Shown here: in pieces, positions 2,639 through 64,000 of the stretch
How positions within the stretch are numbered: the first letter of the stretch is position 1
Layout: the number at the start of each line of letters is the position of its first letter
Assembly: GCA_000165345.1 (NCBI GenBank)
Contig: CM000433.1
Span: 736,001-800,000, forward strand
DNA length: 64,000 nt
Direction of reading: 5' to 3'
Position numbers and translations under genes: made by a program
Notes under the pieces: generated by a model
What the model saw: only the letters and a program-made list of their open reading frames with translations
The model's database searches: none
Told to the model about the DNA's origin: nothing

Positions 2639-3074
2639 GTCAATGAATCTTTTGATTCATTTTATTTCCATTTTCTCCATTCAAGAATCGGGGATCTGGA
2701 GAATCTAGCAGATCTCCTTATCTTAAATGGATCTTCTTTCGGAAACTAATGGGGATATCTTTGGTGTACATGAATTGGATTAGGTTTCTTAACAATTACT
2801 TAAGAAATTTATCCTATCAGTGCTGTTATACTAGAAAGTGATTCCAAGGGCTTATATTTCAAAATTCTAATTCAAGTAATAATAGGATTTAAGTATCATC
2901 AAATATGAATCCAATCAAAGGCTACTTATACCAGGCGTCACTAGACNCCACATTTTCTGTCACTTTATCAACTAAAATAGAATAATTAATGAATATGTAT
3001 ACTATATTTATATTGTTTCTTTTTCACTCTCCTGTCATAAATCTAGCCAGTGAATCTTCTGTTGATGTTGTAAC

Positions 3075-6310: not shown

Positions 6311-6812
6311 AATGCATTATAAATAAATACTAAGATAATAAGTTAAAGATTAATAAATTAACATTATGAACAAATGTAGTGAGGTACCAAAAAAATATAA
6401 ATTTTTTCAAATTATAATTTCTTATGGTTGAGTATTAAAGTGTTTTTAACATTGGATTTATAGGATTTAACAATTATTAATTTTTTTAATTTCTTAATAC
6501 GAAATTTAAACAATTATAATAATTATATTTCAAGTTTAATCTCTTTTTGAAGACTAAATTTCAATTAGTAAATATAATAGACTTAATTTTGAATAATAGT
6601 ACTAAGCCAAGTTTATAATCTGATTTGAACTTCGAAATTAATGTATTTTAAATCATAAAAATTTCAAGGTTTAGTTCAACAAATATATAAATATATATAT
6701 ATTTATTTATATGTTAAATATATAAATTTATTAATTCAATTAAGAAAATCCAGGAATCCGATAAAATTTGAGGACAAAAAAAAAGAGATAAGTGAATATT
6801 ATTGGAACTAAC

Positions 6813-14125: not shown

Positions 14126-15058
14126 ATGTTAAAGGTTTCTCAGCTAAGAAATAATAAAGGTGGAGTTATGAGTTTGGGAGGAGAGACAGAACAACAGAGA
14201 TTTGATTCAACAAATATTATGGAAGAAAGTAAAAAGAATTCTTCTAGAGTCATAGTAAACTCTGGTTCAGCTGTAGGAATCAAGTATAAAGATGGCATTA
14301 TGCTAATTTCAAGCCCTTTATTATGTTATGGATCAATGAAGATGAATTCTGATATTTCAAGGTTCCATGTAATTGGATCAGGAATGATTGATTTATATGA
14401 TGAAAGACAAAAACTTAAAAGCAAAGATGAGGATATGAGTTCCGTTAATACTGATAAAAGACCATTGGTCAGAAAATTGACAGAAGTAGATGAAGATGCA
14501 AAAGTAAGATTTTATGAAGGAAAGCTTTCAGTAATAGTATCAACTGGGGAATTTAGTGATTTTCAAAACATTATTGAAAGAGTTGAAGAAAAAGCAGCTG
14601 AGGACTTTTTTGAAGGAAATTTCAAATCTGCCAAGGAGTATAGTGGATATATTTCAGCAGTTCATTATCAAAGAAGAAATAAGATGGATCCTTTATTGAA
14701 TGATATAATAGTTGCAGGACTGCGAAAAGATGGAAGTAAAGAAATTTATTCAGTGGATCCATTAGGTACTAGATTTGATGAAGACTTTATTGCTAGTGGA
14801 ATGGCTGAGTATCTTGCAATTACATTACTTAGAGATAAATATAAGCCAGATATGAGCTTTGATGAAGCAAAATTGATCTTGGAAGATTGCATGAAAAACT
14901 CATTTTATATTGAATGCAAAGGAGCTAGAATGGTTCAGATTGCCACAATTAATCAAGATGGTACCAGAATTTACCCAAAGTATCCTCTTGATGTTACTTG
15001 GAGGCATGATCTTTTTGTCAAATCTAACTTGGATAGAAAAGACTATGTTGGATTTTAA
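14126..15058 (+). CDS. PSMB4: Proteasome beta-type subunit (beta-7/PSMB4-like, non-catalytic) with an N-terminal extension and an internal insertion.
   Basis: SGSAVGIKYKDGIMLISSPLLCYGSMKMNSDISRFHVI...GSGMIDLYDE, YISAVHYQRRNKMDPLLNDIIVAGLRKDGSKEIYSVDPLGTRFDEDFIASGMAEYLAITLLRD and ARMVQIATINQDGTRI. These align by eye with the PSMB4/Pre4 blocks LGSYGSLARFRNISRI, SRRSKMNPLWNTMVIGG and RFQIATVTEKGVEI. Confidence 0.7.
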   Translation: MLKVSQLRNNKGGVMSLGGETEQQRFDSTNIMEESKKNSSRVIVNSGSAVGIKYKDGIMLISSPLLCYGSMKMNSDISRFHVIGSGMIDLYDERQKLKSKDEDMSSVNTDKRPLVRKLTEVDEDAKVRFYEGKLSVIVSTGEFSDFQNIIERVEEKAAEDFFEGNFKSAKEYSGYISAVHYQRRNKMDPLLNDIIVAGLRKDGSKEIYSVDPLGTRFDEDFIASGMAEYLAITLLRDKYKPDMSFDEAKLILEDCMKNSFYIECKGARMVQIATINQDGTRIYPKYPLDVTWRHDLFVKSNLDRKDYVGF

Positions 15059-35152: not shown

Positions 35153-36358
35153 TTATCTGGCACGAGGAGCAAATATTGGAACAATAGCATCAACTTGGTC
35201 TTTTCTATTCATAAGGATCATTTCGGCAATCCAAGTAAGATTTCTAATTTCTTGTTCCTTAAGCCTGGCCCAGGCATAAAATACACCATAATTCATCTGC
35301 TGATCAAAAACAAGCTCACACATGGAGACAGTTTCAGCATATAATAAATCTTCTAAACTCTTAAATTGTCTATCAGCAAGATTCTTGTGACTTGAAGATT
35401 TCTTCTTATCAGTAGATTCATCCTTATCATCAGCAAGTCCAAAATCATTGGCAGTGTCATTAACATAGAATGCTTTGCATTGGTCATAGAGAGCACTGTA
35501 TTTTGAATATGGCTCCAAAGCAGCTCTTACACGAGTATCATTCCAGGCCTTTCTAATTTGTTCTGTGCCTTCTGGATATAAGTAACCAAAGCTTGGATAT
35601 AATGTAGAAGCACTCGAGAAATTAAAATTGAGTGAGTTTAAGGTAATTGCAAGAAGTCTAAAGTCCGCCTCACATTTTAAGACATGGCTCATAACTTCAG
35701 CAGATGTAGGATTCAAAGTTTGACAGAATCTATAGAAATCCTCAAGCCAAGATTTCTTAAGAGAACTTCTGAGAATCTCTAAATCCATTTCCTTAACAAT
35801 TGAGGTAACATCCTCATTTTCACCACTAAAGGATGTCAAAAATTCATCAAAGTATGGTCCAATTGGAGTCTCAATGAGAATTGACTTGTAAAGCTCATCA
35901 AAAGATGAAGACAAATCTAAAGCAACAAAAGCTCTTATTTCTGGGAAATATCCCAATGGGTCTAAACGAGCAAGAAGCTCTTCTGCTGGCTTCTTATTCA
36001 AAGCACCTTGGATCAAATTTACCACATTATCAATCATCTTCTCATAAGTAATGTAATTTAAAAACTTTCCCAATGGCTCATAAGCCTGAGATTGTAACAT
36101 CCTAAATTCATGAGCAAATTTTTCTCTACACTTTTGAGTTATCACATTCACTGACAGAGGAAGTGGCTCATCTTGCATAAATGTACCATAGTCTGTCTCT
36201 TCTAGTGCTGTTCTCATGTCTTCCAAAGTTTCAGCTTGGCCAATTAGGTGGTATTCATCCATTGTTATAAATCCTGATCTATACCCTCGAACCATTGCCT
36301 CCAAATACCCATCCTTTAAGTTAAATGTCAAAAGTTCCATCTTGAATTTAGTACTCAA
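35153..36358 (-). CDS. ATP6V0D: V-type ATPase V0 subunit d, 401 aa.
   Basis: MELLTFNLKDGYLEAMVRGYRSGFIT...ETLEDMRTALEETDYGTF...AYEPLGKFLNYITYEKMIDNV...LYPEG...FGVFYAWARLKEQEIRNLTWIAEMI matches subunit d blocks ([70 protein letters not shown]). Confidence 0.93.
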   Translation of the reverse strand: MSTKFKMELLTFNLKDGYLEAMVRGYRSGFITMDEYHLIGQAETLEDMRTALEETDYGTFMQDEPLPLSVNVITQKCREKFAHEFRMLQSQAYEPLGKFLNYITYEKMIDNVVNLIQGALNKKPAEELLARLDPLGYFPEIRAFVALDLSSSFDELYKSILIETPIGPYFDEFLTSFSGENEDVTSIVKEMDLEILRSSLKKSWLEDFYRFCQTLNPTSAEVMSHVLKCEADFRLLAITLNSLNFNFSSASTLYPSFGYLYPEGTEQIRKAWNDTRVRAALEPYSKYSALYDQCKAFYVNDTANDFGLADDKDESTDKKKSSSHKNLADRQFKSLEDLLYAETVSMCELVFDQQMNYGVFYAWARLKEQEIRNLTWIAEMILMNRKDQVDAIVPIFAPRAR

Positions 36359-45690: not shown

Positions 45691-48600
45691 ATGAGTTTAA
45701 ATCATACGGAAGTTTGTATTTTTTCACAAAAAGCTAATATAGTTTATATGAAGTTGCTAAAAGTAGCCCTGAAACCATCAATATTTATGTTAGATTTAGA
45801 TAAAGAAGATGATAGCGATGATTTTAAGGATTTCTTTTTGGAACTTTACTTCAAAAGACTCAATATTAACAAGAAAGGAGATTGTGAAGTAAACTTAACC
45901 CGGGATGTAAAAAATTCAATGATTCCTTCTTCGAAAATTTTTTATTTGATTTATAAAAAAAGCGATCCACATGATTTTTTTGCATGCAGCCATGCAGATA
46001 AAATAATTTCATTCAATACCGGCGTGTCCACATTACTAAGAAATGTGTGCAAATACATGCATTTGGTATTTGTTTTGGATTTAGGGTCATTACTATGGTT
46101 CTCAGAATTATTTGATGATATAGAACAGTTGGGGGTGTATTTAGATGAATTTTTGTTAAGTTTAGAAAATATATTAAATGGTGTTTCAAGATTATCTGAG
46201 TATTTAAAGTATCTACAAGAAGATGTAGAAGTGAGATTTTCCGTTTTTTTGTTTGGGTTGAATCAAGAGGAATCTTGTTTTAAACTGATATTTTATGAAA
46301 TTCCACTAATTTCTTGGATTTCTGAAACAGAACTTTTTATTGAAAACTTGCAAAAAGAGATTCAGCAAATATTAAAGACTCATTTGGAATTCAAGGAAGG
46401 TATACCAAACTTTCCAAGGAACTTGTGGAGTATTGAGATTCTTGCATTATTGAATTCGTTTTCATCTTCTTTCGTTCATTCACTAATTGTTATTACAACG
46501 GGAGTAATATCTTCCAGACTTTTTTCTAAAGAAAATTCTTCATCATTAGTTTGCAAGAATAGTTACTTATTACATCACTGTTATTCAAATGATATTCAAG
46601 TTCATTTTTTGGTTATTAACAAGTTTAATATAGACCTGGAAGAATCAGAAATTGGATTGAATCCTTCATTAGACACTTTGGAGTTTGTTGCAGCAACTTG
46701 TAATTCAACTTTAACAGTAACTGAGTTTGGAGTAAATGAACAAGATGCGAGGAAGATAGCTATTGATTTGTTACTCAGACCGGATATTTATAATATTCCT
46801 TCGGATATTGTATCAGAAGTTAAAAATGAATTTAATAATTTGACGGAGATTTATGGCTACAAAGTAAGTCAAAAATTATCTCTGATTGAGATTTTATTAA
46901 ATAAATTAAGAAACAGTTTTAATTTTGTTGGAGAAACAATAATTGAGGTTCCCTTAATTTTATATTCAAAATTTCACAAGCTGATTGAAATTATTTGCGT
47001 AATTGAGAATTATAAAGATATTCAAGATAATCATTGTTCAGGATTTTGGTACATCAAATTCTATATCAAAAATCTGGGGAATGTTATTTCTACTTCTGAT
47101 GAATTTTCTTTATTAAAAAAATTACTAGAGTCTAAAGAAGAGATTAAAAAGCCCAAGTCATTTAATAAACCTAATAGATTGACTTATTTTCTTTACTCTT
47201 TTATACTCAAAATCCGTCAATTGGATACTTGGATGGAGAATTTGGTTGAAAATTATTCAAAAACTAAAGACCCTCCAGCTTTTCCAAGTGGTTTGAATAG
47301 CTTATTTCTCCCAAGTATTATTCGGCATAAGATTGACTTAGTTTTGGAGAGCGATCAAAGTTTACTCAAGGAGGGAGTTTTTGATGGTTTTAAGGGTTCT
47401 TGGGAACTTTTACAAGATAAATTGGTAGAAATGGGATTTAAAGCTTTTATATTAGAAAATCAACAGTTTGAGTATGACTTTCCAATAATAGAAAAGGATA
47501 AAATCTTAATATATTATAATTTGTTTCCAAAGATGAATACTAGTGAAATCGAGTTCAAGTGTGAAGATCATGGAATCTTGAGAATTTTAAGATCCTGGGC
47601 AAAAACTGATTCTTTACTGGAAAATCTTAACTCAAATGGGTCTGAAAAAGCCAACAACTTTATGGCAATTTGGTTGGATGCCCAGAGAATCATTATTAAA
47701 ACACCTGATCATGAAAAAAGTAATAGTGAAGAAATAGAAAGCCAATCTTCATTAGTAATTTTTAATATCCTATATTATGGGTTTAGCCCAGAATATTGCC
47801 AGGAATATACAAAGTGGTTTAAAGAAAAAATTATTAAGTACGGAATTGATTCTGATGAGGCCGACTTAAGTCTTTTAAGATTTTCACTAGTAACAAATAA
47901 TTTCTATGAAAGCGTTATAAATGGAGAAAGATGTTTGGAAAAGTCATGGAGCTATGTGCTTTGGAGTGAAAAGGTAAATTATAGCTATCAAGAACAAGAA
48001 CCAATGGATTTGAATGGAAGAGTCATAATAAATATATCAAATTCTAGATATTTGGATGGGTGGATCTTGCTTAATAGAAGAAATGACAAATATCAATTAA
48101 GCTCAACCTGGTACAAAGTCCGTGATTTCCAAATCAGAAACAATTTCAAGTTAAAGGTAGTATTTATTTATGATCTTAAATTTCAATTTGGAAACAATAC
48201 AAATAGTAGTAGGCTAATATGCAGAATTTTAATGTCAAGTTCTATTGGAAAAACTGATATTATTAATGAAACCTATGGAGAATACTTTTCATTTAATAAA
48301 TTCGCAGAAAAAATTCATTTTCAAGACAATAAAATAATACAAACAATCTCATTAATAGATTATTTGTATACTTCAAGCCATTTAAGGAAGAATATTGTAT
48401 ACCTTAGAAATAATAATGATGAAGAGGTAAACGAAAAAAGTAAAGGAGAAAATAATTCTGAAATAAAGTCTGAAAGCTTTCATCAAAATCTATGCAAGAG
48501 TAAATTTGGAGCAGTAAACTCTAATTATTACAATATCATTTTTAGTGGCCTTACAAATTCGAAAGAATTTAATAAATACAAGAGAATAATCCAAAGTAAA

Positions 48601-51600
48601 TCATTTTATGGAAATGATAATAAAATTTCATTATCAATTCGAGAAATTTCAAATCTTTTTCTCACATTTAATAATAATGAAATTAAGTTAGATTCAGATG
48701 ATAAAGATACATTCAAGCTAGTTTTACCATTTAATTTAGGAAACGGCAACTATAAAGATGCTGAACAGGAATTGGATAAAGAATTTATCAATAAATTTAA
48801 ACCTTTCTGTTTTATAGAGATACCTCTAATTAACGCAGGAAATTTATTTACTTCTCAGCTTAATTCCAATAGTAGAAAGAAGAATTCTGACATTGAAGCA
48901 AGAAGAAAGTATTTGGAGGGCGCATCAGAAAGTTCATTTGAGAAGTTTCTTTATAAGATGTCAAAGATCACAGATAGATCCGTTAGAGTAGATGAAAATG
49001 AGTGGTATACAATATTGTTTATAGATGAAAGTGACTTAGATGGAAAGTTTGAGGACGAGGAAAGTTTGACAATTAATGAAGATTTAAAACCTATTCCTGG
49101 TGATAAAAAAGAAGAAATGAACAATGAAAATTCAATAAGAAAGTTATATACTAATCAGATCTATGATTATATGATAATTACTCATATTAGGCTTCACAGG
49201 TCTAGCTATAATGTACCAACAAGTTCAGTATTAGGAGTTTATCTATGCTCATATTATAATATTAGCTATGGAATAACTGGGAAAAAGAACAATATTGAAT
49301 TAGGAATTAACGAAAAAAATAAGCTTAATAAGGTAAGACAATTCGTGGAATTATATATTTTAAGAGTAAAAGAAATTTGGGATTCTATTAAATTTAATAT
49401 GATTTCCCAATACTATCTATTAGGGATACCAATTTGTTCTAAAGATATTGCAAGGATACAAAATGAAAATGAATTCAATGAAGAGAAGACTCAACCACCT
49501 TCTTCCATTGGCGGATTAAATAAGAGTTTAATAGAAGATCCCATATCAGTTCGTGGAATTGACCTTGATTTAGATCCAGAATTTGACTTCATTAAAGAAG
49601 ATAATACACATCAAGAGAATTTTCAAAGCTTATTATATGGATTAAGCTCTAATCAGGAACATCTTTCAGAAAAGGGAACATATTCTGATCCAGATACTTG
49701 CTCAGATATAGCTTTTGATGCAAATGAATATAATGAAGTTAGAAGAGAAGTTTGTAAGTATCTTAAATGCAATATATTCAGATTTAAGCTTAGCCTTTCA
49801 AGCTTTAAAATAGTTTTATCTCGAAAATTTACAAAAAATGTGGAATTGGACAAAGGTTTGGATGAATTGGATGAATTAGCAAATTTTATTGGAGAAGAAC
49901 TTGAAAGTCGTATGAAAAATGCATTGAGAGTGAAATTGGTTCATTTTGATTGTCAAGATTTAAATTGTTTTTTAGTTTTCTGTGGAGTACTTGATTTGTG
50001 TAAAGGGAGTACTAAGAATATTTTAGTAACTGTTTCATTAATGAAAAACGAGCAAAATTTAGGAATTTCTTACCTTGAACTAGCCAAATTTTGGACAAGA
50101 TTTAAGAATACAAGTTTTAACCCTACCTGGTTTCACTGCTTGGTTTGGAAGAGTTTAACAGAAAGAGACAATTTAGAACTTAAAGTGACTGTATTCACAT
50201 CCATTGATAAGAAGTACATTAGAGTCAACAGAATAAATACTGAGCTTTGGTCAATTATTAAGTTAGAAAAAGAAGTCTTCGTTTCAAAATTAAGAAGTGT
50301 AATTTCATCTTGGATGACTGATATGACCATGGAGCTTTCTTTCATACATGGAAATGAAATTTCTGGGGATATTAATGATGAATCATATAGAATGAGTCTT
50401 TTTGCTTGCTTTGGAAGAGATTTATTATTGGAATGTTTACAAGGAGTTAAAGAGAAAATTTGGAATGATGGGGATGAGATATTTTCAGGAGAGTCATTTG
50501 AGAAAGGCGAACTCGTATCTTCTGGATCACTCATTTTTAGAAGAGACATTCAGCTTCCTTTGATCAAACCTACTACTAAATTTGAAAATTATATTGCAGT
50601 AATTAATTTACTTTCATCTCAAGCTGATTATATTCCAATCAAAAGAAAACCACAATTAGTCTTAATATGGCATGGATCTAAGTTTCCAACTGAGAGTTTA
50701 TCAATCAGAAATCCAAGCTTAAAATGCAAGCTCAGAAGAGGCCTTATTAACAGGTTAATTGAGCATACTAGAGTACTTGCTGAGATCTCTAACCCTGATG
50801 AATTGATAAGTAATGAATTGGTACTTAAACTTGCTTTAAAGATTTATTTCCCATCTTCAATTATTACTGGAATGAGTATTGCTTCACAAAATAAATTTAG
50901 ATGCAGATTATGTGATTTTTATATAGATCTAAATGGCTTACGTGAATCTATTAATTTCCTTTTTTCAGCAATGCAAAGCAGATTCATTAGTATTTGGAAG
51001 GAAGCAACATGTGATTTCTTATTACAAAATGTCACTATTTCAAAGATGGTTAGTTATCTGATGGTACCTAAATTTGTTTCATCTGATTATTCAAGCTTGA
51101 GATTAGAAATTGATAAAAGAAAACCAGAAATCTCAATTTTAGATTCAAATGATCAAGAAGAAATTTTTGGACAAATTTCAATTACGTCAGAATGGCTATA
51201 CGAAGTTCCTTTTGAAATTTCTCCAGCAAGATTTAGAAGAATGAAAAAAAATAGTCTTAATAATTTGCTTAAAAGAAAGTTGGATCCTGATTATTACGAA
51301 AATCCTGGAGAAGTAATTCTATGGGATGGTAGAATTGTTAAAGTACCTAATTATATATTTTGGTTAAAAAAACATGAGGAAGTGTTTATTGAAATTCCAT
51401 CTGAACTTTATGATGCTCCATTAATTGATATTTTGTTTGGAGGAGGAAACTTGGATATTTCAAGTATTGATAAATATAGCAAAGAACTATCTTCAATTGA
51501 AAAAAATTTATTCGGAAATTCTGATTTTGGAAAGGAGCTTAATAAAGCTTCTGAGCTTCGATTTTCGAAAGAAATAGAATTTATTTCATTAATATATCCA

Positions 51601-54600
51601 AAAGGATGGTTATTATACTCTGAAGATGCAACTACTTCAACCAATACACTTGGAACTGGATCAATATTTCTAATTAAACCAGATTATCTTTTTATTGATA
51701 TTAAAAACAAGGATTTGAAATTACAAAGAAAAAGAAGAAAAGATTTTATTAATCAAAATGAGTCATACCAAAGTTATTCTGTAGAACTTTCTCTTTCAAA
51801 TTTAAATGTTACAAAACCTAAATCCAAAATTGGGATTTCTCTTTCTTTCTTTGGAAAAAGAAAGCCTTCAAAGAGTACAAAATTATACTTTTATAGAGAA
51901 TTAAAGTTTACATTGCAGAGATTAATTTCTAATTGGAACAATAACCTCAACACTATAGTTCTTTCTAAAACAGTTCGTGAGAGACAAGTTGGAGAAATAT
52001 ATTGGAACTCAAAGAATGAATTAAACAGTGATAGTAATCAAAAGGTGGAGATGCCTTGTCATCTAACTTTAATCTTGAAATTAAGCAAAGTATACCATAA
52101 TTTTGTTGTTGCTTCAGTTTGGAATATGGTTAAACATAGTAATATTATTTTAAAAAGTGGGGATTTGTTTGCAATACTGGCAAGTATATTAACATATTAC
52201 AATATCAAATATAAAGAAATTGATAGAGGAATTCGTATTTTTACTAAAAGTATTGATATTGATTCAAAATCTGAGGAATTTGAATATCAAATTGATATAT
52301 CAGTATTTTCAGGAATTAATGGTAGGATCTTAGATATTTCGGATCCATGGGCTGCAGGAAATAAGCTTGGTCAAGATCCCTATTTAAATTTAGAAAAATA
52401 TATTAATGACTGTCTACTTCCAGTTTTTGAAGATGAAATACAACAGTCTACAAATCCATATTGGGACTTTAATACAGTCTTTGAATTTGTATTCTTTAAT
52501 AAAAATAATCAGTTTGATAATATTAATAATTGTAATATAAATGAAACCATTTCTTGGAATCTAATAAGAGATTCAAATGGTAAATTAATACAGATACAAA
52601 GAAACTTACCAATACACATCATTCCAGAAAATAACTCAAATGAAACAAAAAAGCAAAAATCTCCTCACTCATTTATCCAAACAAGTTCTCGGTACGAATC
52701 TGATAATATGGAATTACCAATATATTTAATGCCATGTATTTATTTGGGAGCAGATGTATTCTATAAAGGAAAACTAATCTATTTGGATGAGAGACTAGAA
52801 ACTAATGAAATGACTAAGCATAAAGCAAATGGTGTAAGTTTGTTTATTAATTCACTTTTGAATTTAATGTTTATGGAACTATTGATTAAGCTAAAGCTTG
52901 CAACTAACGATAATTGGGTTCTAAAAGATAACTTACAGTTTTCCAAGAAAGAATCGAATATTCAAACAAATGATAATTTAGATGATTGTTCATTAATTGT
53001 TAGTAATAGTTATGCTGAAGCTCATGGAGTAACTATTAGAGATATACATAAATATAGAGATAATATCCAAAACTTTTTTCAGGCAATAATTAATAATAGA
53101 AATAATATTGAAAGATTCTTACCTTTAAAGCCAGCACCTAAACATAACACAATCTTAGAAATTTATCCAATACCAAGTTTAATTCTACAAGATATTAATG
53201 GAGAAAAAGATGAGACTCAAATTTATTTTCCTTCTTGGAGTGTAGCTGAATTTATTAAAACATTAAGAGATGAAATTATGCTCATTCAAAATAATAAAAC
53301 TAACTTATCAGAAAAAAGGAATATAAAGACTGTCATTTCTGGATATACTTGCATAATTCATGATAATAAAGAAATTGATATAGAAGAAAAGGTACTGAAA
53401 AAAGAAGATGGAATTTCATTATCTAATAATTCTTCAATTCATATCAAATTTCCTATTAGAGGAAGCCAATCATTTAAAAATGCTGATGTTGGAGAATGTG
53501 GATGGCATGTTTTGAAATATAAATCTCAAATAAAATACTTGAATTATTTATGTAATCAAACAGATTTGAACATTAACAATTGGGTGGATTCATTATATGT
53601 AATGAATAATATCTCTCCTAATATTAATAATTCGATTGGGAACAAAAATGATTTAGACTTTAACGAAATTTATGGTTCATTTTTTAATATTTCTGGTGGA
53701 AAAGAAAGACCATGTATAATAGTAAATATTCATTCAGGTAATGAAACTGAAATTGAATGTTTGATCATTCTTGAGCTTACTCCTAGTGGAATATTGATTG
53801 CATGTTGGAATGCTCCTGTTTTAATTATAAGCAGGCTTCAGAAAATGATTAAGGGATTTGTATTTGAAAGTTGTATCAAAATAATTTGGTCATTACAGTT
53901 ATCAATTTGGTACAAATATAATGTCATTTATAGAAAGCACATTTTTGTATTGGATTTGTCAAAATTTCATTTAGATTTTAAGCAAGATTCCAGTATTAAT
54001 AATAATGAATCATCAGGGTTTTCTATGATTAATAATAACTATTATCCGAGAATATGTGAGATTACCACAGATATTATTTCATATATTTGGAAGAATCAAT
54101 ATTTCAATACAAATTTGAAATGGAGTCATACTGAAGATTTGTATAAAAAGGAGCTTATGATTGAATGCAAAATTAATAGATTAAAGTTGGAGGATGTTGT
54201 AATTCCAAATATTATAATGGGAAAGATATTAGATTTGAAATTTGAAGACTTATTTGATAGAAATAATAATAAGGAATTTAATTGGTTCATTCCTTCTATC
54301 ATTAACAAAATAAGAATTTTAAATTCTGATAATTTAATGAAAAGGTGGAATAATTACTTCTTTAAATATAAATTATGGTTATTTGTTAATCAATTTTTGA
54401 TTGAATGTTTTGCAATTAAAAGTTTAAGACAAGAAATTTCTACAAAAATATTTTCAAAGAATATAATTCTTCAAGTTAGTAAAAGTAATATGATCTTTAA
54501 ATATCAACAGATTATTAATTTCTTAAAGAAGAGAGTTGAGACTTATAATATTGATTATTCAAAATATTATAAAACTTATAAAATTAATTGTCAAGAGAAA

Positions 54601-56820
54601 GAAGATAGTTTATTAAGTGATGAAAATATTATTCAAACTCATTATAACTTATTAACTTATCTTCAAAATTCTCATAATATTATTAATACATTAATTTCAG
54701 CAACAGCTCAAAATCAAGATAATCATTTCATATTAATTCATCCAAATAAAATGACTGAAGAATTTATTAAGAATCGAAATAAAACTGATAATAATGATAA
54801 AGAAAAACAATTAAATGATGAAAATATTAGTAGTTGTGAATTTTGTATGGTAAATCCAAAAGATATTTCTATCAGAATAATATTAACCACTTTATTCAGA
54901 TGTTCAATTGATGTTTTGGATCGATTATATAATGAAAAAAAAGCTGAGTCAAATTTAAATGATGATGAATATAGTTTTAAAGGATTGGAATCTTTTGATT
55001 TAGATTCTAATAATTACAAATATGAAGAACAATATATTCAAAATGAACAAAAGAATTCAATTCTATATAATGAACAAGAAGAGAATTTCAACACCAAAAA
55101 AATAGTGATAGAGAAATTAAAATGTTTTGATAATAAAGGTGAGTTATTGATCTTTATTGAAGATATATCTGGGATCCCATTTCAAAATTTTTCTTCTGAT
55201 CTTGAGAATATGTATATAATTAAGGATTTAACTATAAAATTGGATGAATTATTTAAAGAAAATGGATTTATTCGAGTTACAAATTCTTATAGTGAAATTA
55301 TTAATAAAGAATACTTATATAAAAATAATTATTGTATTTCAGTAATTAGTAGTATATTTAGTGGGTTAAATATACATGAAAGAATTGAAATGAAGAATTT
55401 AAGTTATTTAATGGAAACAGAAATTGGTTCTGAGAGAGAAATCATTATATATATAAAAACAATACATATCAAGAAATATAACTTTTCAATACCTATATGT
55501 ATTTTTTTAAGTTTGTATAAATGTAAAATAAAGATAATATATTTATCAAGTATTTTCAATGATGGTACATTATATATAAATCAAAGTATTCTAGAGTTTA
55601 TTGAAATGCTTAATATTAAAAAGTTGATTTTTGAATATATATTATCATATACTGGATCTTTAATTTGGAATATTTGGAATCAAAAAAATATTATTTTGAA
55701 TTTAGAAAACCTTCAATATTTGGAAAATAGGGTTTCTGATTTAAGATTATCATCTGATCAGTTAATTGAATTGACATTATGGTTAAATAAATTTTCACAA
55801 AATTATCCAAATATTATTAAAGATTCAAATTTGATGATATTTAAGATATGGTTCTCTAGAAATCTTAAAATAAATAATAATCAGTTAATTTCAATACAAA
55901 ATAGCTTTAACCATTATATTGAATCAGAAAAGTTAAGTTATAGAATAAAAATCTTACCAAATTCAAGTAATAAAGTACTTATATTATTCCAATCATTAGT
56001 TAGAAATGAATTAATTGGATTAATCATAGATTATTTTAAATTTGATGAAATAATAACAAATGAAGAATTACCAATGGATTGTTTTATTATAAAAAGTAAA
56101 CCAGAATTGAAAGAATGTCGCCATGAATCAAAATTTTCTGATCAAGAAAAGGTTAGATGGGAAATAACCAATACACTAAGTTCTATACAAGAATATATAA
56201 AAAGAAATCAATTGGTAAAAAAAATCCAAGTATATGGAATAACTTTTTCACAAAAGTTTATTGATGATTTGGCAAATAATCAATTTTCAATTAATATATC
56301 TTTAAATAATCAATTATTAAAACAATTACCAATTATAAAGATTCAAAATTTATTATTTAAAAATGATATTAAAATGATAATTTTTAAACCAATGTTGAAA
56401 ATTCAAGAAAATATAAATGTAATAATATCATTATTTAGACGATTTTGGATGAAGAATGATGCAATTCGATTCTTTAATTCTTTATATATAATAAAAGATT
56501 CCGAAATTTTTGATGAATCTTTACAAGATAGGATTATTTCTGTGGTAATTAAACATAAAAGAAGAGAGTTAATTTTGATAAGATTTTTCACAACTTTTAA
56601 AGTTGATAAAAGTAATGATATGGAATGGATTTTTAATGAAATAAAGTTTACTTTTAAAGATGAAGATAAAATTAAAAGATATTTCTTAATTAATAATAAA
56701 GATGATAATAATATTGAATTAGGGTATCAGAAAAATAATAAAATAATAAAAGAAGAATTATTTGAATTAATATTAAAATCAATAGAATTTATTTTGGATA
56801 ATAATAATACAAGCAAATAA
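45691..56820 (+). CDS. Giant uncharacterised protein, 3709 aa, single uninterrupted 11.1-kb ORF.
   Basis: A continuous ORF with coding-like composition throughout. No signal peptide, no P-loop, no Zn-finger, no recognisable catalytic motif found by eye. The C-terminal third is I/N/K-rich. Confidence 0.85.
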   Translation: MSLNHTEVCIFSQKANIVYMKLLKVALKPSIFMLDLDKEDDSDDFKDFFLELYFKRLNINKKGDCEVNLTRDVKNSMIPSSKIFYLIYKKSDPHDFFACSHADKIISFNTGVSTLLRNVCKYMHLVFVLDLGSLLWFSELFDDIEQLGVYLDEFLLSLENILNGVSRLSEYLKYLQEDVEVRFSVFLFGLNQEESCFKLIFYEIPLISWISETELFIENLQKEIQQILKTHLEFKEGIPNFPRNLWSIEILALLNSFSSSFVHSLIVITTGVISSRLFSKENSSSLVCKNSYLLHHCYSNDIQVHFLVINKFNIDLEESEIGLNPSLDTLEFVAATCNSTLTVTEFGVNEQDARKIAIDLLLRPDIYNIPSDIVSEVKNEFNNLTEIYGYKVSQKLSLIEILLNKLRNSFNFVGETIIEVPLILYSKFHKLIEIICVIENYKDIQDNHCSGFWYIKFYIKNLGNVISTSDEFSLLKKLLESKEEIKKPKSFNKPNRLTYFLYSFILKIRQLDTWMENLVENYSKTKDPPAFPSGLNSLFLPSIIRHKIDLVLESDQSLLKEGVFDGFKGSWELLQDKLVEMGFKAFILENQQFEYDFPIIEKDKILIYYNLFPKMNTSEIEFKCEDHGILRILRSWAKTDSLLENLNSNGSEKANNFMAIWLDAQRIIIKTPDHEKSNSEEIESQSSLVIFNILYYGFSPEYCQEYTKWFKEKIIKYGIDSDEADLSLLRFSLVTNNFYESVINGERCLEKSWSYVLWSEKVNYSYQEQEPMDLNGRVIINISNSRYLDGWILLNRRNDKYQLSSTWYKVRDFQIRNNFKLKVVFIYDLKFQFGNNTNSSRLICRILMSSSIGKTDIINETYGEYFSFNKFAEKIHFQDNKIIQTISLIDYLYTSSHLRKNIVYLRNNNDEEVNEKSKGENNSEIKSESFHQNLCKSKFGAVNSNYYNIIFSGLTNSKEFNKYKRIIQSKSFYGNDNKISLSIREISNLFLTFNNNEIKLDSDDKDTFKLVLPFNLGNGNYKDAEQELDKEFINKFKPFCFIEIPLINAGNLFTSQLNSNSRKKNSDIEARRKYLEGASESSFEKFLYKMSKITDRSVRVDENEWYTILFIDESDLDGKFEDEESLTINEDLKPIPGDKKEEMNNENSIRKLYTNQIYDYMIITHIRLHRSSYNVPTSSVLGVYLCSYYNISYGITGKKNNIELGINEKNKLNKVRQFVELYILRVKEIWDSIKFNMISQYYLLGIPICSKDIARIQNENEFNEEKTQPPSSIGGLNKSLIEDPISVRGIDLDLDPEFDFIKEDNTHQENFQSLLYGLSSNQEHLSEKGTYSDPDTCSDIAFDANEYNEVRREVCKYLKCNIFRFKLSLSSFKIVLSRKFTKNVELDKGLDELDELANFIGEELESRMKNALRVKLVHFDCQDLNCFLVFCGVLDLCKGSTKNILVTVSLMKNEQNLGISYLELAKFWTRFKNTSFNPTWFHCLVWKSLTERDNLELKVTVFTSIDKKYIRVNRINTELWSIIKLEKEVFVSKLRSVISSWMTDMTMELSFIHGNEISGDINDESYRMSLFACFGRDLLLECLQGVKEKIWNDGDEIFSGESFEKGELVSSGSLIFRRDIQLPLIKPTTKFENYIAVINLLSSQADYIPIKRKPQLVLIWHGSKFPTESLSIRNPSLKCKLRRGLINRLIEHTRVLAEISNPDELISNELVLKLALKIYFPSSIITGMSIASQNKFRCRLCDFYIDLNGLRESINFLFSAMQSRFISIWKEATCDFLLQNVTISKMVSYLMVPKFVSSDYSSLRLEIDKRKPEISILDSNDQEEIFGQISITSEWLYEVPFEISPARFRRMKKNSLNNLLKRKLDPDYYENPGEVILWDGRIVKVPNYIFWLKKHEEVFIEIPSELYDAPLIDILFGGGNLDISSIDKYSKELSSIEKNLFGNSDFGKELNKASELRFSKEIEFISLIYPKGWLLYSEDATTSTNTLGTGSIFLIKPDYLFIDIKNKDLKLQRKRRKDFINQNESYQSYSVELSLSNLNVTKPKSKIGISLSFFGKRKPSKSTKLYFYRELKFTLQRLISNWNNNLNTIVLSKTVRERQVGEIYWNSKNELNSDSNQKVEMPCHLTLILKLSKVYHNFVVASVWNMVKHSNIILKSGDLFAILASILTYYNIKYKEIDRGIRIFTKSIDIDSKSEEFEYQIDISVFSGINGRILDISDPWAAGNKLGQDPYLNLEKYINDCLLPVFEDEIQQSTNPYWDFNTVFEFVFFNKNNQFDNINNCNINETISWNLIRDSNGKLIQIQRNLPIHIIPENNSNETKKQKSPHSFIQTSSRYESDNMELPIYLMPCIYLGADVFYKGKLIYLDERLETNEMTKHKANGVSLFINSLLNLMFMELLIKLKLATNDNWVLKDNLQFSKKESNIQTNDNLDDCSLIVSNSYAEAHGVTIRDIHKYRDNIQNFFQAIINNRNNIERFLPLKPAPKHNTILEIYPIPSLILQDINGEKDETQIYFPSWSVAEFIKTLRDEIMLIQNNKTNLSEKRNIKTVISGYTCIIHDNKEIDIEEKVLKKEDGISLSNNSSIHIKFPIRGSQSFKNADVGECGWHVLKYKSQIKYLNYLCNQTDLNINNWVDSLYVMNNISPNINNSIGNKNDLDFNEIYGSFFNISGGKERPCIIVNIHSGNETEIECLIILELTPSGILIACWNAPVLIISRLQKMIKGFVFESCIKIIWSLQLSIWYKYNVIYRKHIFVLDLSKFHLDFKQDSSINNNESSGFSMINNNYYPRICEITTDIISYIWKNQYFNTNLKWSHTEDLYKKELMIECKINRLKLEDVVIPNIIMGKILDLKFEDLFDRNNNKEFNWFIPSIINKIRILNSDNLMKRWNNYFFKYKLWLFVNQFLIECFAIKSLRQEISTKIFSKNIILQVSKSNMIFKYQQIINFLKKRVETYNIDYSKYYKTYKINCQEKEDSLLSDENIIQTHYNLLTYLQNSHNIINTLISATAQNQDNHFILIHPNKMTEEFIKNRNKTDNNDKEKQLNDENISSCEFCMVNPKDISIRIILTTLFRCSIDVLDRLYNEKKAESNLNDDEYSFKGLESFDLDSNNYKYEEQYIQNEQKNSILYNEQEENFNTKKIVIEKLKCFDNKGELLIFIEDISGIPFQNFSSDLENMYIIKDLTIKLDELFKENGFIRVTNSYSEIINKEYLYKNNYCISVISSIFSGLNIHERIEMKNLSYLMETEIGSEREIIIYIKTIHIKKYNFSIPICIFLSLYKCKIKIIYLSSIFNDGTLYINQSILEFIEMLNIKKLIFEYILSYTGSLIWNIWNQKNIILNLENLQYLENRVSDLRLSSDQLIELTLWLNKFSQNYPNIIKDSNLMIFKIWFSRNLKINNNQLISIQNSFNHYIESEKLSYRIKILPNSSNKVLILFQSLVRNELIGLIIDYFKFDEIITNEELPMDCFIIKSKPELKECRHESKFSDQEKVRWEITNTLSSIQEYIKRNQLVKKIQVYGITFSQKFIDDLANNQFSINISLNNQLLKQLPIIKIQNLLFKNDIKMIIFKPMLKIQENINVIISLFRRFWMKNDAIRFFNSLYIIKDSEIFDESLQDRIISVVIKHKRRELILIRFFTTFKVDKSNDMEWIFNEIKFTFKDEDKIKRYFLINNKDDNNIELGYQKNNKIIKEELFELILKSIEFILDNNNTSK

Positions 56821-56855: not shown

Positions 56856-58333
56856 TTAATAAAAAGGATTAAAATTGAAATATTTATGGATAATTTCTTT
56901 AATACCTTCAAGATCAATTTGTTGTATTTGTTTAAGCTTATCATCAATACTGGTATAATGGTTATTGACTATTAAATCTCTACCAATTTCCTCAAATAAT
57001 GTTCCAGAATTTTCATATAATGAAGTTAATTGATATGAAAGAATTCTCTTAACTCTAATAATATCGTCTTCAGTAATTAATGAATGTAGGTTTTTAAATC
57101 GAGAGCTAATTAATTTGGCATTTTCCATAATAGCTTTGTGACTAAGATCACTATTGCTTTTAAGGTACCATCCAAATAAGCCTAATAATGAATTAAAAAA
57201 GAAAACTAAGAATAGGAATGAAGATATAACTTACCTGTATCTTTATAACAAGTATTAAAAGTTTCAAAGAATTCAACATGGTCTTTAATACCAGAAAGAA
57301 TCCTTTCAATAATTTGGTTTTTATATCCAGTTACTCTATTAATATTATTGGTTCCATATTCCCCTAGCATACTTTGGAGAAACATAACTTTAAGAAAATC
57401 TTTGGAATTCCAAGATGTACCATTGTATGCCATAGCAAGAAGAGTCTTTCCATCACTATTGTTTTTTTTGTGTACTAATACAGGATGATTTTTATCAGAG
57501 TTAATTTCGTTCAAATATTGAGAATTGGATAAATTAATATTTTTATATCCCTTTAAACCAAGTAGATTTCTGGAGTTATTTGAATCATTTCCAAAATAAG
57601 TTTCAGCAATATTCTTAAAAGAATTATGGTCAATATTACCAACTCCTAAAATCATCATTTTCTCTGGAATATAATTAGTACGTATATAATTGATCAAATC
57701 TTCTCTTTTGAATCCAAGAATATTTTCTTTTGGACCAAGAATAGTATTTCCAAGTGGATGATTCTTATACATTTCTTTATGTAAATCATCAAAAATAATC
57801 TCTTCTTCAGATTTGCTTACTTCTTCCATTTCTCTTAAGACAACTCCTTTTTCTTGTTCAATAGCAGATTTACAAAATTTGGAGTTTTTAATAATATCAC
57901 TCAAAAGATCCATGCACTTTGGTAGGTCTTGATTAAAGCATCTGATTTGATAAACCGTTTGTTCGCGAGTAGTATATGCATTCAAATGGGCACCTAAGTC
58001 TTCAATTTGGCTTTCAATTTCTTTTCTAGATCTATTGTATGTACCTTTAAATATGAGATGTTCCAAAAAATGAGCAATCCCATTTTTTCCTGGGTCTTCA
58101 TTTCTACTTCCAGAATCTACCCATAATCCAAAAGTTAGAGAATTAGGGATACTGTCAATTCCAAACTTCATGGTTGCAACTCTCATCCCATTTGAGAGTT
58201 TGGAGATCTTTAAATCTGGATCATTTCTTTTAAAACTCAGAGTGCTGTTAAATCTTGCATATCTAGTAGGCAATACTCGTAACAAATTTGAACATCCAAG
58301 TTTTAGTATGGAGTTTTTTAAAATTAAGCTCAT
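56856..58333 (-). CDS. M16 (insulinase-family) metallopeptidase, mitochondrial-processing-peptidase beta-like, in two exons: 58333..57235 and 57181..56856. The intron is 53 nt. N-terminal presequence-like segment.
   Basis: Inverted zinc-binding motif HFLEHLIFKGT with downstream E residues (EIESQIEDLGAHLNAYTTRE). The donor ACAG|GTAAGT (intron starts 57234) and acceptor CATTATTAG (ends 57182) join ...CYKDTG to LFGWYLKSNSDLSHKAIMENAKLISS... in frame. The N-terminus is MSLILKNSILKLGCSNLLRVLPTRYARFNSTLSF. Confidence 0.85.
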
Positions 58334-61140: not shown

Positions 61141-61241
61141 TAAGGTCTGATAGAGGAGGTAGTAAAGTGGAGGAAGGAGGTTTATCAAAGGATGAAACTG
61201 AGACACTTATTGTTTGAAAATAAAGGAAGAAGCTTGAATTA

Positions 61242-64000
61242 ATGAATAAGATTAAGTTATTAGCATATATTTTGTGGATATTTCAGGCCTTCTTGGAGAT
61301 TACGGAAGGAGTAGTTAAAAAGGTTCCGATAGTGAGTTCTTCGGGACTTGTTTGCGAAGATAATCCATCTGTAGCAGAAAGTGGTTATTCATGTTCATTT
61401 CTGGCAAGAAGATTTGGAGGTTTTCTTGGATGTGAAAAATTGCTCAAGGATTTGGCTCAAGATAGTTTACCTCCAGGGATACCAGGGAATACAAGAGTAG
61501 TGGATGCATGCCCAAGTTCTTGTAATAAGTGTCGGGAATGCTCTCCAGGATGTGCTTTATGGTTTATAGGCAATGGAGTTTGCGATCCAGAATGCGACAA
61601 TCTTTCCTGTCAGTTTGATGGAGGAGATTGTTGGAAGGTTGATTGCAAACTTTCAGCCTGGTCTTCTTGGTCAGCATGCTCTGTAACTTGTGGGCCGGGA
61701 GGAAGAGTAACTAGAACAAGACAAATAGTTGTAAGTCCAAGAAATGGAGGAGAAACATGTGGAGCTCTCAAGGCTGAAGAAACCGGATGTAATTCCCATA
61801 TTCCCTGTCCCTTGAGTTGTACTGTCTCTGAATGGGGTAATTGGTCACGATGTTCTTTAACTTGTGGAATAGGTCACCAAATGAGAGAGAGGTCGGTAAT
61901 TAAGGCTCCAAAGGACCAGAATCTATTTCAATGTCCAGAAACTAGACAGATAAGAGAGTGCATACAAGATACATGCTCAAGCAATTGTACTTTGGGAGAG
62001 TTTAAATTCAAGTCAGCTGTTTCTGGATCTCCCTGTTTAATGGAGAAAGGATGCGTAGAAAGGAGAGAAATACTTCATCCTCCTTTTAAGCCTGAACTTG
62101 GAAATTTTACTTGCAAAGTGGAGGAAAGACCTTCAGATTGTTTAGGTCTGCATTTGGGTTGTCCAGGCCCCTGCGAGTTTTCAGAATGGTCAGGATGGTC
62201 CTTGTGCTCATATTACAAAAATGAAGGGCTTGGATTTGATGATGAAGCTTCCAAGTATAAGTTGTTAAAGAAGAGAAGAAGGGTTGCAAGAAGAAGAATG
62301 AGAGACGCGAATTGTGAGGATGAATTGGAATATAAAGAATGTGATGAATCAGAGAGACATGGTGTTGAAGCCTTGGTGAGATGCAACATGGGAGATTGGT
62401 CATCTTGGTCTTCTTGTTCGACAAGCTGTGGCCTTGGATCCAGGTTAAGAGCTAGATGGTTATTAAGCGAGCCTGAGAATGAGGAGGCTTTATCGGAGAA
62501 TCTGATTAATTCGGAAAGTGTTTGTGGTCCTCTTTTTCAGACTAAGGCTTGCAATGATAGATCTTGCTTGACCGAGGGATGCAAAGTATCTGATTGGGGG
62601 CAATGGTCAGCTTGTTCAAGTAAGTCTTGTAATTTCCCAGGGCTCTCAAAGAGACAAAGAAGTGTCATATCATTACCAAGAAAGGGTGACTGCCCAGTTT
62701 TAGAGGAAAGTAGAGACTGCTTAGGAGCATGTGACCATTCGGTTTCAGTAAGTAAGTCCAACTGTATGTTTGGAGATTGGTCATCCTGGTCAACATGTCA
62801 GGACGACTGTTATACTAGGTATAACAATAGTAGCGGCGCAAATAGGAGTGAAAAGGAGAAGCCTAAAAGGTACAGACACAAAATGATAATATTTAATCCA
62901 AAGGACAAGGATTGCTCCAAAGAAAATGAATATTTAGAGGTTGAAAACTGTGAAGGAGGCTGCGAAAATGCAAATGTGGAGATTTGCCAGGTAAGTGAAT
63001 GGGGACCTTGGAGCAGCTGTAGTGCAAATTGTGATGGAGGATCAAGAAGGAGGATCAGAGAGAGGATAAACTCCGGAAGAGGAGTTGGGAAGGCAGGGTC
63101 ACGCCCATTGACAAGAGGGGTTTCTAGTAGTTGTCCTTCACTCTTAGAAGTGGAGAAATGCAATACTCATCCCTGTGAGTATAGTTGTGAGCTTTCCCCA
63201 TGGTACTCGAATTCCAAAAAAAGTACTGGTCCTCAGGATAGAAGAGGAAATAGAAGCGATGCAATGCTTGAAGATGAAAGGAATGAGGATATAGTTATTT
63301 CAGATTGTTCTACAAAATGTGGAATTGGAGTTGTGGAAAGATCAAGAAGAATTCTGAGTGGAGGGTTTGTCATTTCTAGTAATGAAGAGCAAAATCAGTA
63401 TACCTCCAAGGTATGCGGCCCTTTAAAGGATACTATTAAGTGTGTGAGAATCTCAGAAGGGTGTAGTGTTGATTGTCAAGTTGGAGAATGGAGTTCTTGG
63501 TCAGCTTGCTCAAAAAGTTGTGGAGAAGGATTCCAAAATAGGTCTAGAGAGCTTTTAGTTCCTTCTTTGGGAAGGAAATGTGAATTGGCTACCGAAGAAC
63601 TAAGAGAATGTTTTGAAAGACCTTGCCCAAGCTCCTGTCAAGTTTCACCTTGGTCGGAGTGGACAATGTGTTTAGGAGGATGCGATGAAAAACCTTACAA
63701 GAGAAGGGAAAGAAAAATACTGGAAGCTCCTGCTCCTGGACAAAATTGTTTAGCATTAGAAGAGAAGGTAGATGCTGAAGAGGAGTGTCCAAGAATTGAG
63801 AGGTGTCCCTCTGACTGTAAAGTAGGAGAATGGTCTTCCTGGTCTGAATGTGACGCAAAATGTGGGATTGGAGTAGAAAAAAGACTTAGGAAGGTGGTAA
63901 AAAGGGAATCAAAGGGAGGTGCGCCGTGTCCAAATCTGGAGGACTTACGTCCCTGCTCAAGAGAAGCCTGTAAGTCTGACTGTGTATTAGGGGAATGGAC
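61242..64000 (+). CDS. Thrombospondin type-1 repeat (TSP1) adhesin with N-terminal signal peptide and a Notch/LNR (Lin-12) module. At least 10 TSP1 repeats. The ORF is open to the window end (3' partial).
   Basis: Signal peptide MNKIKLLAYILWIFQAFLEI. LNR module CALWFIGNGVCDPECDNLSCQFDGGDC. Repeated W-x-x-W-x-x-C-S-x-x-C-G motifs with basic tails follow, for example WSSWSACSVTCGPGGRVTRTR, WGNWSRCSLTCGIGHQMRERS, WSSWSSCSTSCGLGSRLRAR, WGPWSSCSANCDGGSRRRIRER, WSSWSACSKSCGEGFQNRSREL and WSSWSECDAKCGIGVEKRLRKV. No stop codon to 64000. Confidence 0.9.
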   Translation, partial: MNKIKLLAYILWIFQAFLEITEGVVKKVPIVSSSGLVCEDNPSVAESGYSCSFLARRFGGFLGCEKLLKDLAQDSLPPGIPGNTRVVDACPSSCNKCRECSPGCALWFIGNGVCDPECDNLSCQFDGGDCWKVDCKLSAWSSWSACSVTCGPGGRVTRTRQIVVSPRNGGETCGALKAEETGCNSHIPCPLSCTVSEWGNWSRCSLTCGIGHQMRERSVIKAPKDQNLFQCPETRQIRECIQDTCSSNCTLGEFKFKSAVSGSPCLMEKGCVERREILHPPFKPELGNFTCKVEERPSDCLGLHLGCPGPCEFSEWSGWSLCSYYKNEGLGFDDEASKYKLLKKRRRVARRRMRDANCEDELEYKECDESERHGVEALVRCNMGDWSSWSSCSTSCGLGSRLRARWLLSEPENEEALSENLINSESVCGPLFQTKACNDRSCLTEGCKVSDWGQWSACSSKSCNFPGLSKRQRSVISLPRKGDCPVLEESRDCLGACDHSVSVSKSNCMFGDWSSWSTCQDDCYTRYNNSSGANRSEKEKPKRYRHKMIIFNPKDKDCSKENEYLEVENCEGGCENANVEICQVSEWGPWSSCSANCDGGSRRRIRERINSGRGVGKAGSRPLTRGVSSSCPSLLEVEKCNTHPCEYSCELSPWYSNSKKSTGPQDRRGNRSDAMLEDERNEDIVISDCSTKCGIGVVERSRRILSGGFVISSNEEQNQYTSKVCGPLKDTIKCVRISEGCSVDCQVGEWSSWSACSKSCGEGFQNRSRELLVPSLGRKCELATEELRECFERPCPSSCQVSPWSEWTMCLGGCDEKPYKRRERKILEAPAPGQNCLALEEKVDAEEECPRIERCPSDCKVGEWSSWSECDAKCGIGVEKRLRKVVKRESKGGAPCPNLEDLRPCSREACKSDCVLGEW

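Follow-up and report, generated by a model that had tools for sequence, protein, structure and literature searches.

The window analysed here, a 64,000-nucleotide stretch of DNA (GenBank assembly GCA_000165345.1, contig CM000433.1, positions 736,001 to 800,000 of the forward strand; G+C ~0.30), contains on its + strand a single unbroken open reading frame (ORF) that runs from an ATG at position 45691 to a stop at 56820 and comprises 3709 codons plus the stop. This is the longest ORF in the window, the runner-up encoding 2093 amino acids (aa). An exact-sequence look-up identified it as Cryptosporidium parvum cgd5_3390 (XP_626264.1; QOY41862.1, CPATCC_002467; UniProt Q5CRC2). The NCBI model for the identical sequence (CP044418.1, GCA_015245375.1; locus names ending in _5g3390, or cgd5_3390) is the same intron-free ORF, and together with the ORF listing it bears out a first-pass annotation of this DNA, made from the letters alone, which had described an intron-free 11.1-kb frame as the largest gene of the window. 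The gene itself is already known: all sources name it "hypothetical" or "uncharacterized", and neither cgd5_3390 nor Q5CRC2 is mentioned in the searchable full texts or in the supplements of two Cryptosporidium papers, which likewise yielded no interaction or localisation data. What is apparently new, in that we could not find it reported, is a recognisable SZT2-type domain in cgd5_3390, and with it a possible KICSTOR-like scaffold in an apicomplexan without TOR; no paper in the searchable literature treats SZT2 and Apicomplexa together. Here, we describe the conservation of the gene, the N-terminal domain of its product, and the readings that these observations allow.

A single constrained gene conserved across Cryptosporidium

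An open frame of 3,596-3,887 aa has been retained in eight species, C. parvum itself together with C. hominis, C. meleagridis, C. tyzzeri, C. canis, C. ryanae, C. muris and C. andersoni. Within the 90% cluster, the orthologues from C. hominis, C. meleagridis and C. tyzzeri measure 3,596-3,709 aa, and the locus in C. meleagridis is syntenic, having Kazal-like, M16 peptidase and TPT-transporter genes as its neighbours here too. For C. parvum against C. meleagridis, the ratio of nonsynonymous to synonymous substitution rates (dN/dS; Nei-Gojobori, 3,687 codons) is 0.186, and it lies between 0.09 and 0.31 in each 300-codon block of the ORF; the M16 peptidase next to it gives 0.176 and the neighbouring secreted Kazal-like protein 0.49. 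A six-sequence alignment is conserved over its whole length, with 27-92% identity to C. parvum, several hundred invariant positions, and variable linkers at ~aa 900-1050, 1250-1350, 2000-2050, 2400-2450 and 3000-3150. Genus-invariant motifs, such as WKEATCDFLLQN, YPKGWLLYSEDATT..GTGSIFLIKPDY and SLSFFGKRKPSK, are dense in the central region, the most conserved part of the protein (Table 1).

When aa 1201-2400 were compared exhaustively by phmmer with 1.84 billion representative proteins, the search returned five matches, each of them a "hypothetical" Cryptosporidium protein (C. hominis, 98%; C. canis, 54%; C. ryanae, 40%; C. muris, 34%, in whose cluster C. andersoni falls; and a C. felis N-terminal fragment), and no relative from outside the genus. 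Two conserved peptide patterns likewise found no relative in JGI metagenomes. cgd5_3390 is a real, single, constrained gene, and since the constraint extends over its full length, the product is a folded multidomain protein rather than a low-complexity artefact, as the first-pass annotation had proposed. The search for orthologues and the dN/dS measurement that it recommended yielded full-length orthologues throughout the genus, none beyond it, and the low ratio given above.

No Pfam family matched the C. parvum protein at E<=10, and none matched the six orthologues at E<=1; across the full protein, the six orthologues and four isolated N-terminal domains, Pfam returned noise only (e.g. SSRP1_C, E 0.089). 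Searches of PDB sequences by phmmer, with the full-length family profile and with an N-terminal profile gave chance matches only (Cas7f, E 0.06; a phage tail fibre, E 1.2), so the HMMER comparison with Pfam and PDB that had been suggested produced no match beyond chance. The 3709-aa protein contains no Walker A, HExxH or RING-like pattern, and no transmembrane segment, no 19-residue window having a mean hydropathy >1.8. There are no tandem repeats of note in the ORF, and no internal repeats were detected by BLAST or by hhalign over 435 block pairs (31 blocks). An internal duplication hinted at by BLAST (aa 351-425 and 1121-1188) was rejected, its hhalign value being 0.1 and no pair reaching a probability of 30. 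The earlier statements that the protein carries no nucleotide-binding or catalytic motif and no repeat architecture are upheld by these searches. The accompanying statement that it has no zinc-binding motif holds for RING-like patterns and needs qualification elsewhere: H3012, H3017, C3049 and C3052 (HFILIHP...SSCEFCM) are invariant in 6/6 orthologues, in a neighbourhood whose adjoining 50-residue blocks are only ~21% conserved, and could form a His2Cys2 metal site.

An N-terminal vWA-like domain and its relation to SZT2

Residues ~120-350 read as a β-α-β domain in an N-terminal alignment that includes the C. felis fragment. An AlphaFold2 (AF2) model of aa 1-480, built from a seven-sequence multiple sequence alignment, is of low confidence (mean predicted local distance difference test score, pLDDT, 44; core elements 50-65), and the order of its elements over aa 122-361, β1-α1-β2-β3-α2-α3-β4-(α4)-β5-α5-β6-α6, is the topology of a von Willebrand factor A (vWA) domain. 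With this low-confidence model as the query, SZT2 (PDB 9o5a_D, 9o5d_E, 9v0j_D) was the best match in two fold-search programs and occupied Foldseek ranks 1-2. An AF2 model of aa 1351-2550 was unusable (pLDDT 33), and Foldseek returned only START/Bet v 1-like, helix-grip noise for it; the secondary structure predicted by the AF2 models, again at low confidence, is mixed α/β. The testing of SZT2 at the sequence level began after SZT2 had topped the weak Foldseek list, and the hypotheses tested were SZT2, DEPDC5 and five controls. The human SZT2 sequence used was checked against the deposited one (residues 1-850 identical; residues 851-3432 matching as one stretch, 5,922 bits, with bits per residue equal to those of the identical part), and DEPDC5 1-429 was verified likewise; the vWA control sequences, unverified, served as negative controls only.

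The family block aa 121-360 aligned by hhalign to SZT2 1-420 with a score of 37.7. None of 400 global shuffles reached this value (13.5+-2.5, max 25.0; extreme-value (Gumbel) P~2e-6), and none of 400 local shuffles within 15 residues did so (14.3+-2.6, max 27.9; P~7e-6). A second block, drawn from the alignment designated A3, scored 28.7 against SZT2 (P~3e-4). When 31 blocks spanning the protein were compared with all 3,432 residues of SZT2, only the two overlapping domain blocks stood out, with scores of 38.9 and 37.8; they align aa 252-344 to SZT2 246-328, and the best block against reversed SZT2 scored 20.1. DEPDC5 1-429, at 19.8 against shuffles of 14.1+-2.6, was at background, as were the generic vWA controls Rpn10, TFIIH p44, Ku80 and CMG2 with scores of 11-14, and the integrin αM I-domain, aligned at its VVITDG strand, scored 22. 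An HMMER family profile, run with every filter switched off, gave no significant match to SZT2. By BLASTP with composition adjustment, the C. muris domain matched SZT2 1-418 at 31.6 bits (E 2e-5). In full-length BLASTP, C. muris (E 1e-3), C. andersoni (0.017), C. felis (0.46) and C. canis (1.4) all had their top high-scoring segment pair (HSP) in the same SZT2 segment, and the reversed SZT2 control gave nothing better than E 1.4.

At a permissive hhalign threshold the match becomes collinear over 230 columns and pairs β1, β2, β4, β5 and α5-β6. Five motifs are collinear in this alignment: YRFVIELDLSPSTG stands opposite MHLVFVLDLGSLLW, SZT2 IIVITDGVTS opposite LIVITTGVIS, and GLNPSLDTLEFVAATCNSTLTV is also paired. 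The SZT2-similar segment thus holds both SLIVITTGVIS, the counterpart of the vWA "TDG" strand, and GLNPSLDTLEFVAATCNSTLTV. Identity to SZT2 in the best domain is 27%, and the offset of the segment is similar in the two proteins (aa ~250-345 in cgd5_3390, ~246-330 in SZT2).

The residues of the metal ion-dependent adhesion site (MIDAS) of vWA domains, DxSxS...T...D, vary within the genus. C. muris and C. andersoni have LDLSFS at the end of the first strand and I(I/L)TDG as the fourth, that is, the DxSxS and "TDG" signatures, and the same pattern is found in human SZT2 (LDLSPS, ITDG). C. ryanae has LDLSSL and ITNG, and C. parvum, C. meleagridis, C. canis and C. felis have LD(L/M/F)GS and ITTG. 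In C. parvum (LDLGSL, ITTG) the site is decayed; only C. muris and C. andersoni carry both signatures. These MIDAS-like residues form a decay series across the genus (aa 129-133, and aa 264-274 at 46480-46512), and the intestinal lineages may have lost a metal site. Pfam VWA models matched no lineage at E<=10, C. muris included.

In these comparisons neither the generic vWA domains nor DEPDC5 come as close, in sequence score, to the N-terminal ~230 residues as the N-terminal domain of SZT2 does, and we conclude that the two N-terminal domains are homologous. Two claims of the first-pass annotation are not supported in the light of this result. It had seen no recognisable domain, and fold search, profile alignment and BLASTP agree on a vWA-like domain whose best match is SZT2; it had also been unable to assign the protein to any known giant-protein family, and the best domain match is a 3,432-aa scaffold absent from the list of families it had considered. 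Its description of the protein as an orphan survives in part: there is no Pfam or PDB sequence match and no sequence relative beyond Cryptosporidium. The clear profile match to a known family that it named as grounds for abandoning that description was obtained for one domain (P~2e-6) and not for the rest of the protein.

Over the remainder of the protein, whole-length tests had low power, since they relied on one human sequence as target, the compositional gap is extreme, and even the best domain reaches only 27% identity. A collinear chain over aa 361-1390 scored 13.3 against SZT2, a marginal result (7.6+-3.3 for decoys, 3/60 of which scored as well; p~0.05), and a banded chain of 47 blocks, comparing the whole remainder with SZT2, scored 29.5, which is not significant (decoys 25.8+-6.3, 7/27). 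hhalign pairs CEFCM with the sole CxxC of SZT2 (CYFCV, aa 3001), a pairing first spotted by eye and not significant (p~0.06). A second candidate anchor, CFIEIPL opposite SZT2 CVHEIPF(HF), is attributed to chance because two different Cryptosporidium segments match it. A non-collinear HSP joins C. muris aa 716-760 and C. andersoni aa 769-813 (C. parvum ~718-756, window ~47842-47958) to SZT2 2051-2096, with 32% identity over 47 aa and E values of 0.03 and 0.08 in these two gastric species (reversed SZT2, E>=1.4). It could be a chance match or a module type repeated within SZT2-like proteins, and is unproven as a second SZT2 anchor.

Neighbouring genes and other features of the window

The features of the giant gene and of its surroundings are collected in Table 1. 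As the first-pass annotation had reported, a secreted protein, here found to be Kazal-like, lies upstream, and a peptidase of the M16 family lies downstream on the opposite strand. The M16 gene is split by a short intron into exon ORFs at 57206-58333 (375 aa) and 56856-57128 (90 aa), which the Logan gene calls present as two genes; in the NCBI model the exons are joined into a 474-aa product. The N-terminus of the peptidase looks like a targeting presequence. At the end of the window (61224-64000) G+C rises to 0.36-0.42 and G skew to +0.33, coinciding with the gene for a Cys-rich secreted protein that measures 1,540 aa in the public contig. The product of the second-largest ORF is probably a chromatin reader.

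Table 1. Features of the giant gene and of other loci in the window
Feature	Position	Strand	Evidence or remarks
Complete coding sequence of the giant protein	45691..56820	+	ORF listing, translation, identical NCBI gene model, dN/dS, genus-wide orthologues
vWA-like (SZT2/SABA-like) domain, aa ~120-346	46048..46728	+	β1-α1-β2-β3-α2-α3-β4-α4-β5-α5-β6
β1-α1 loop motif LDLGS, aa 129-133, decayed counterpart of MIDAS DxSxS	46075..46089	+	genus alignment; hhalign pairing with SZT2
SZT2-similar segment, aa 252-346 (human SZT2 aa 246-330)	46444..46728	+	hhalign, BLASTP
Most conserved central region, aa 1351-2400	49741..52890	+	conservation profile; lowest dN/dS blocks
Invariant H3012, H3017, C3049, C3052	54724..54846	+	invariant columns, six-sequence alignment
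Kazal-like secreted protein, 613 aa	upstream of giant ORF		signal-peptide-like N-terminus
M16 (MPP-like) peptidase	56856-58333	-	downstream of giant ORF
Cys-rich secreted protein	61224-64000, runs off end	+	thrombospondin type-1 repeats (WSxWSxCSxTCG), LNR-like module
Second-largest ORF, 2,093 aa	24832-31113	-	multiple PHD/PHD-like zinc fingers (zf-HC5HC2H_2, E 1.6e-23)
V-ATPase subunit d	35153-36358	-	
AMP-binding acyl-CoA-synthetase-like gene	6792-8864	+	
Proteasome subunit	14126-15058	+	
Long ORF, 1,258 aa	9520-13296		no Pfam match
Long ORF, 1,019 aa	39378-42437		no Pfam match

Interpretation and comparison with known giant proteins

The domain match, its identical placement, and the matching giant size of the two proteins are the grounds for the reading that we favour, namely that cgd5_3390 is a highly diverged, non-enzymatic scaffold of the SZT2 lineage, either a member or a sister of it; we give this reading about an even chance. 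In it, cgd5_3390 would be a cytosolic giant scaffold conserved across Cryptosporidium. Its N-terminal vWA-like domain would serve as a protein-protein docking module, as in SZT2 and in the SABA domain of DEPDC5, and the remaining ~3,300 residues, predicted to be mixed α/β modules, would bring several partner proteins together, probably on an endomembrane. Since the MIDAS-like residues are decayed in C. parvum, docking there would be metal-independent, and in C. muris it might be metal-dependent. TOR complexes are reportedly absent from C. parvum, which excludes canonical mTORC1 inhibition as the output of such a scaffold; a role independent of TOR, in nutrient status or in membrane tethering, may be envisaged instead. 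A stronger form of the proposal, which we hold only tentatively, is that Cryptosporidium kept a full-size SZT2 orthologue under purifying selection although it discarded TOR and probably Rag and GATOR1.

Several observations weigh against placing the protein in the SZT2 lineage. No collinear similarity to SZT2 was detected beyond the N-terminal domain, that is, over the remaining ~90% of the protein. The organism is reported to be without TOR complexes and may be without Rag and GATOR1: van Dam et al. (2011, PMC3236823) detected no TOR-complex subunit in C. parvum, and Tatebe and Shiozaki (2017, PMC5745459) state, for P. falciparum, that intracellular parasites without TOR have also lost Rag and GATOR1. 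As far as the literature goes, the Rag-GATOR1-TORC1 setting of the SZT2 family, outside which SZT2 is not known to function, is probably missing from C. parvum, and this is a contextual, not a structural, feature. Such findings would be expected if cgd5_3390 were instead a lineage-specific giant sharing with SZT2 and DEPDC5 only an ancient vWA/SABA-like docking domain, so that homology is confined to the domain and does not amount to orthology; its other ~3,300 residues would then have arisen within the apicomplexans or Cryptosporidium and would serve a structure or complex specific to the parasite. This is the main rival, a serious contender that we nevertheless judge to fall short of probable. 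It leaves unexplained why the best match is SZT2 specifically rather than DEPDC5 or a generic vWA protein, and why the domain has the same offset in two proteins of near-equal and very unusual length, and the negative whole-length test that speaks for it had little power, for the reasons given above.

A more sceptical view treats cgd5_3390 as a true orphan without relatives beyond its genus, which resembles SZT2 by convergence or coincidence through a generic Rossmann-like β-α-β arrangement with a VITxG strand. The database-level sequence searches without a significant match, the dependence of the fold searches on low-confidence models, and the choice of SZT2 for testing only after it had topped a weak list are all in its favour. 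We consider it improbable, however, in that hhalign (P~2e-6) and BLASTP (E 2e-5) agree, that region gives the top HSP in each of four lineages against E>=1.4 for the reversed control, five motifs are collinear across the domain, the ancestral-looking LDLSFS/ITDG pattern of C. muris is identical to that of SZT2 (LDLSPS/ITDG), and few hypotheses were tested. Finally, the ORF might not be one functional gene at all, but a pseudogene, several fused genes or an error of annotation. Transcript or proteomic evidence for cgd5_3390 was not retrieved from the literature and supplements searched, but a stop-free frame of 11.1 kb retained at full size in eight species, dN/dS well below one in each 300-codon block, and synteny with the same neighbours in C. 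meleagridis effectively refute this explanation.

If cgd5_3390 is indeed a full-size SZT2 orthologue, the origin of SZT2 lies well before animals and fungi and predates the opisthokont-alveolate split; its ancestral function would have been TOR-independent, for instance the tethering of a complex to an endolysosomal or vacuolar membrane, and could be studied by itself in this parasite. SZT2 is a human epilepsy gene, and orthology, if true, would both extend SZT2/KICSTOR deep into eukaryote evolution and indicate a TOR-independent role for that gene. More immediately, a protein that ranks among the largest "hypothetical proteins" of a medically important parasite with a minimal genome becomes the subject of a testable hypothesis, that of an SZT2-type docking scaffold with a defined domain at aa ~120-350 and with predictions as to its interactors.

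VPS13/BLTP, Tra1, dynein, midasin and BEACH proteins share size alone with cgd5_3390. Against a VPS13/BLTP identity, the six orthologues have no Chorein_N, VPS13 or Apt1 Pfam match, cgd5_3390 has no N-terminal transmembrane anchor and no internal repeats, and the prediction, in low-confidence AF2 models, is mixed α/β rather than an all-β groove. PIKK/Tra1, dynein/midasin and BEACH were rejected in the same way, there being no FAT/PIKK, AAA or BEACH match in the six orthologues and no Walker A motif; the low-confidence AF2 prediction, moreover, is not that of an α-solenoid. Separase was also considered as an identity and rejected. Intracellular and generic vWA proteins, such as Ku80, TFIIH p44/p34, Rpn10 and those with integrin I-domains, do not carry the domain as part of a giant protein. 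DEPDC5/Iml1, a subunit of GATOR1/SEACIT whose vWA-like SABA domain docks NPRL2, has 1,603 aa, under half the length of cgd5_3390, and was rejected since the six orthologues show no Pfam IML1, DEP or DEPDC5_CTD match and the sequence score is at background.

SZT2 (human Q5T011; IPR033228), a scaffold for KPTN, ITFG2 and KICS2 that binds GATOR1 at the lysosome, is the closest parallel. It is the linker around which the nutrient-sensing complex KICSTOR is assembled, and it binds GATOR1 (PMC11866974, PMC11836306), and KICSTOR, at first thought to be restricted to vertebrates, has components in early-diverging fungi and hence predates animals (PMC11836306). SZT2 has no Pfam family, only IPR033228 (PMC11836306), and its N-terminal 513 residues gave no Pfam match at E<=10 in our search. 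The lack of a Pfam model for SZT2 means that routine annotation leaves cgd5_3390 an orphan, and, as a methodological caution, "no domain" in a giant eukaryotic ORF may simply mean a family without a model. Within the domain, the MIDAS-like residues intact in human SZT2 (LDLSPS, ITDG) are decayed in C. parvum (LDLGS, ITTG). The two proteins also have features in common: both are giants, of 3,432 aa and 3,709 aa, and cgd5_3390, like SZT2, is soluble, lacks enzymatic motifs, is invisible to Pfam, and has, at the same offset, an N-terminal vWA-like domain in which hhhhLDLSxS, VITxG/VITDG and GxxPxxExxxFxA are collinear.

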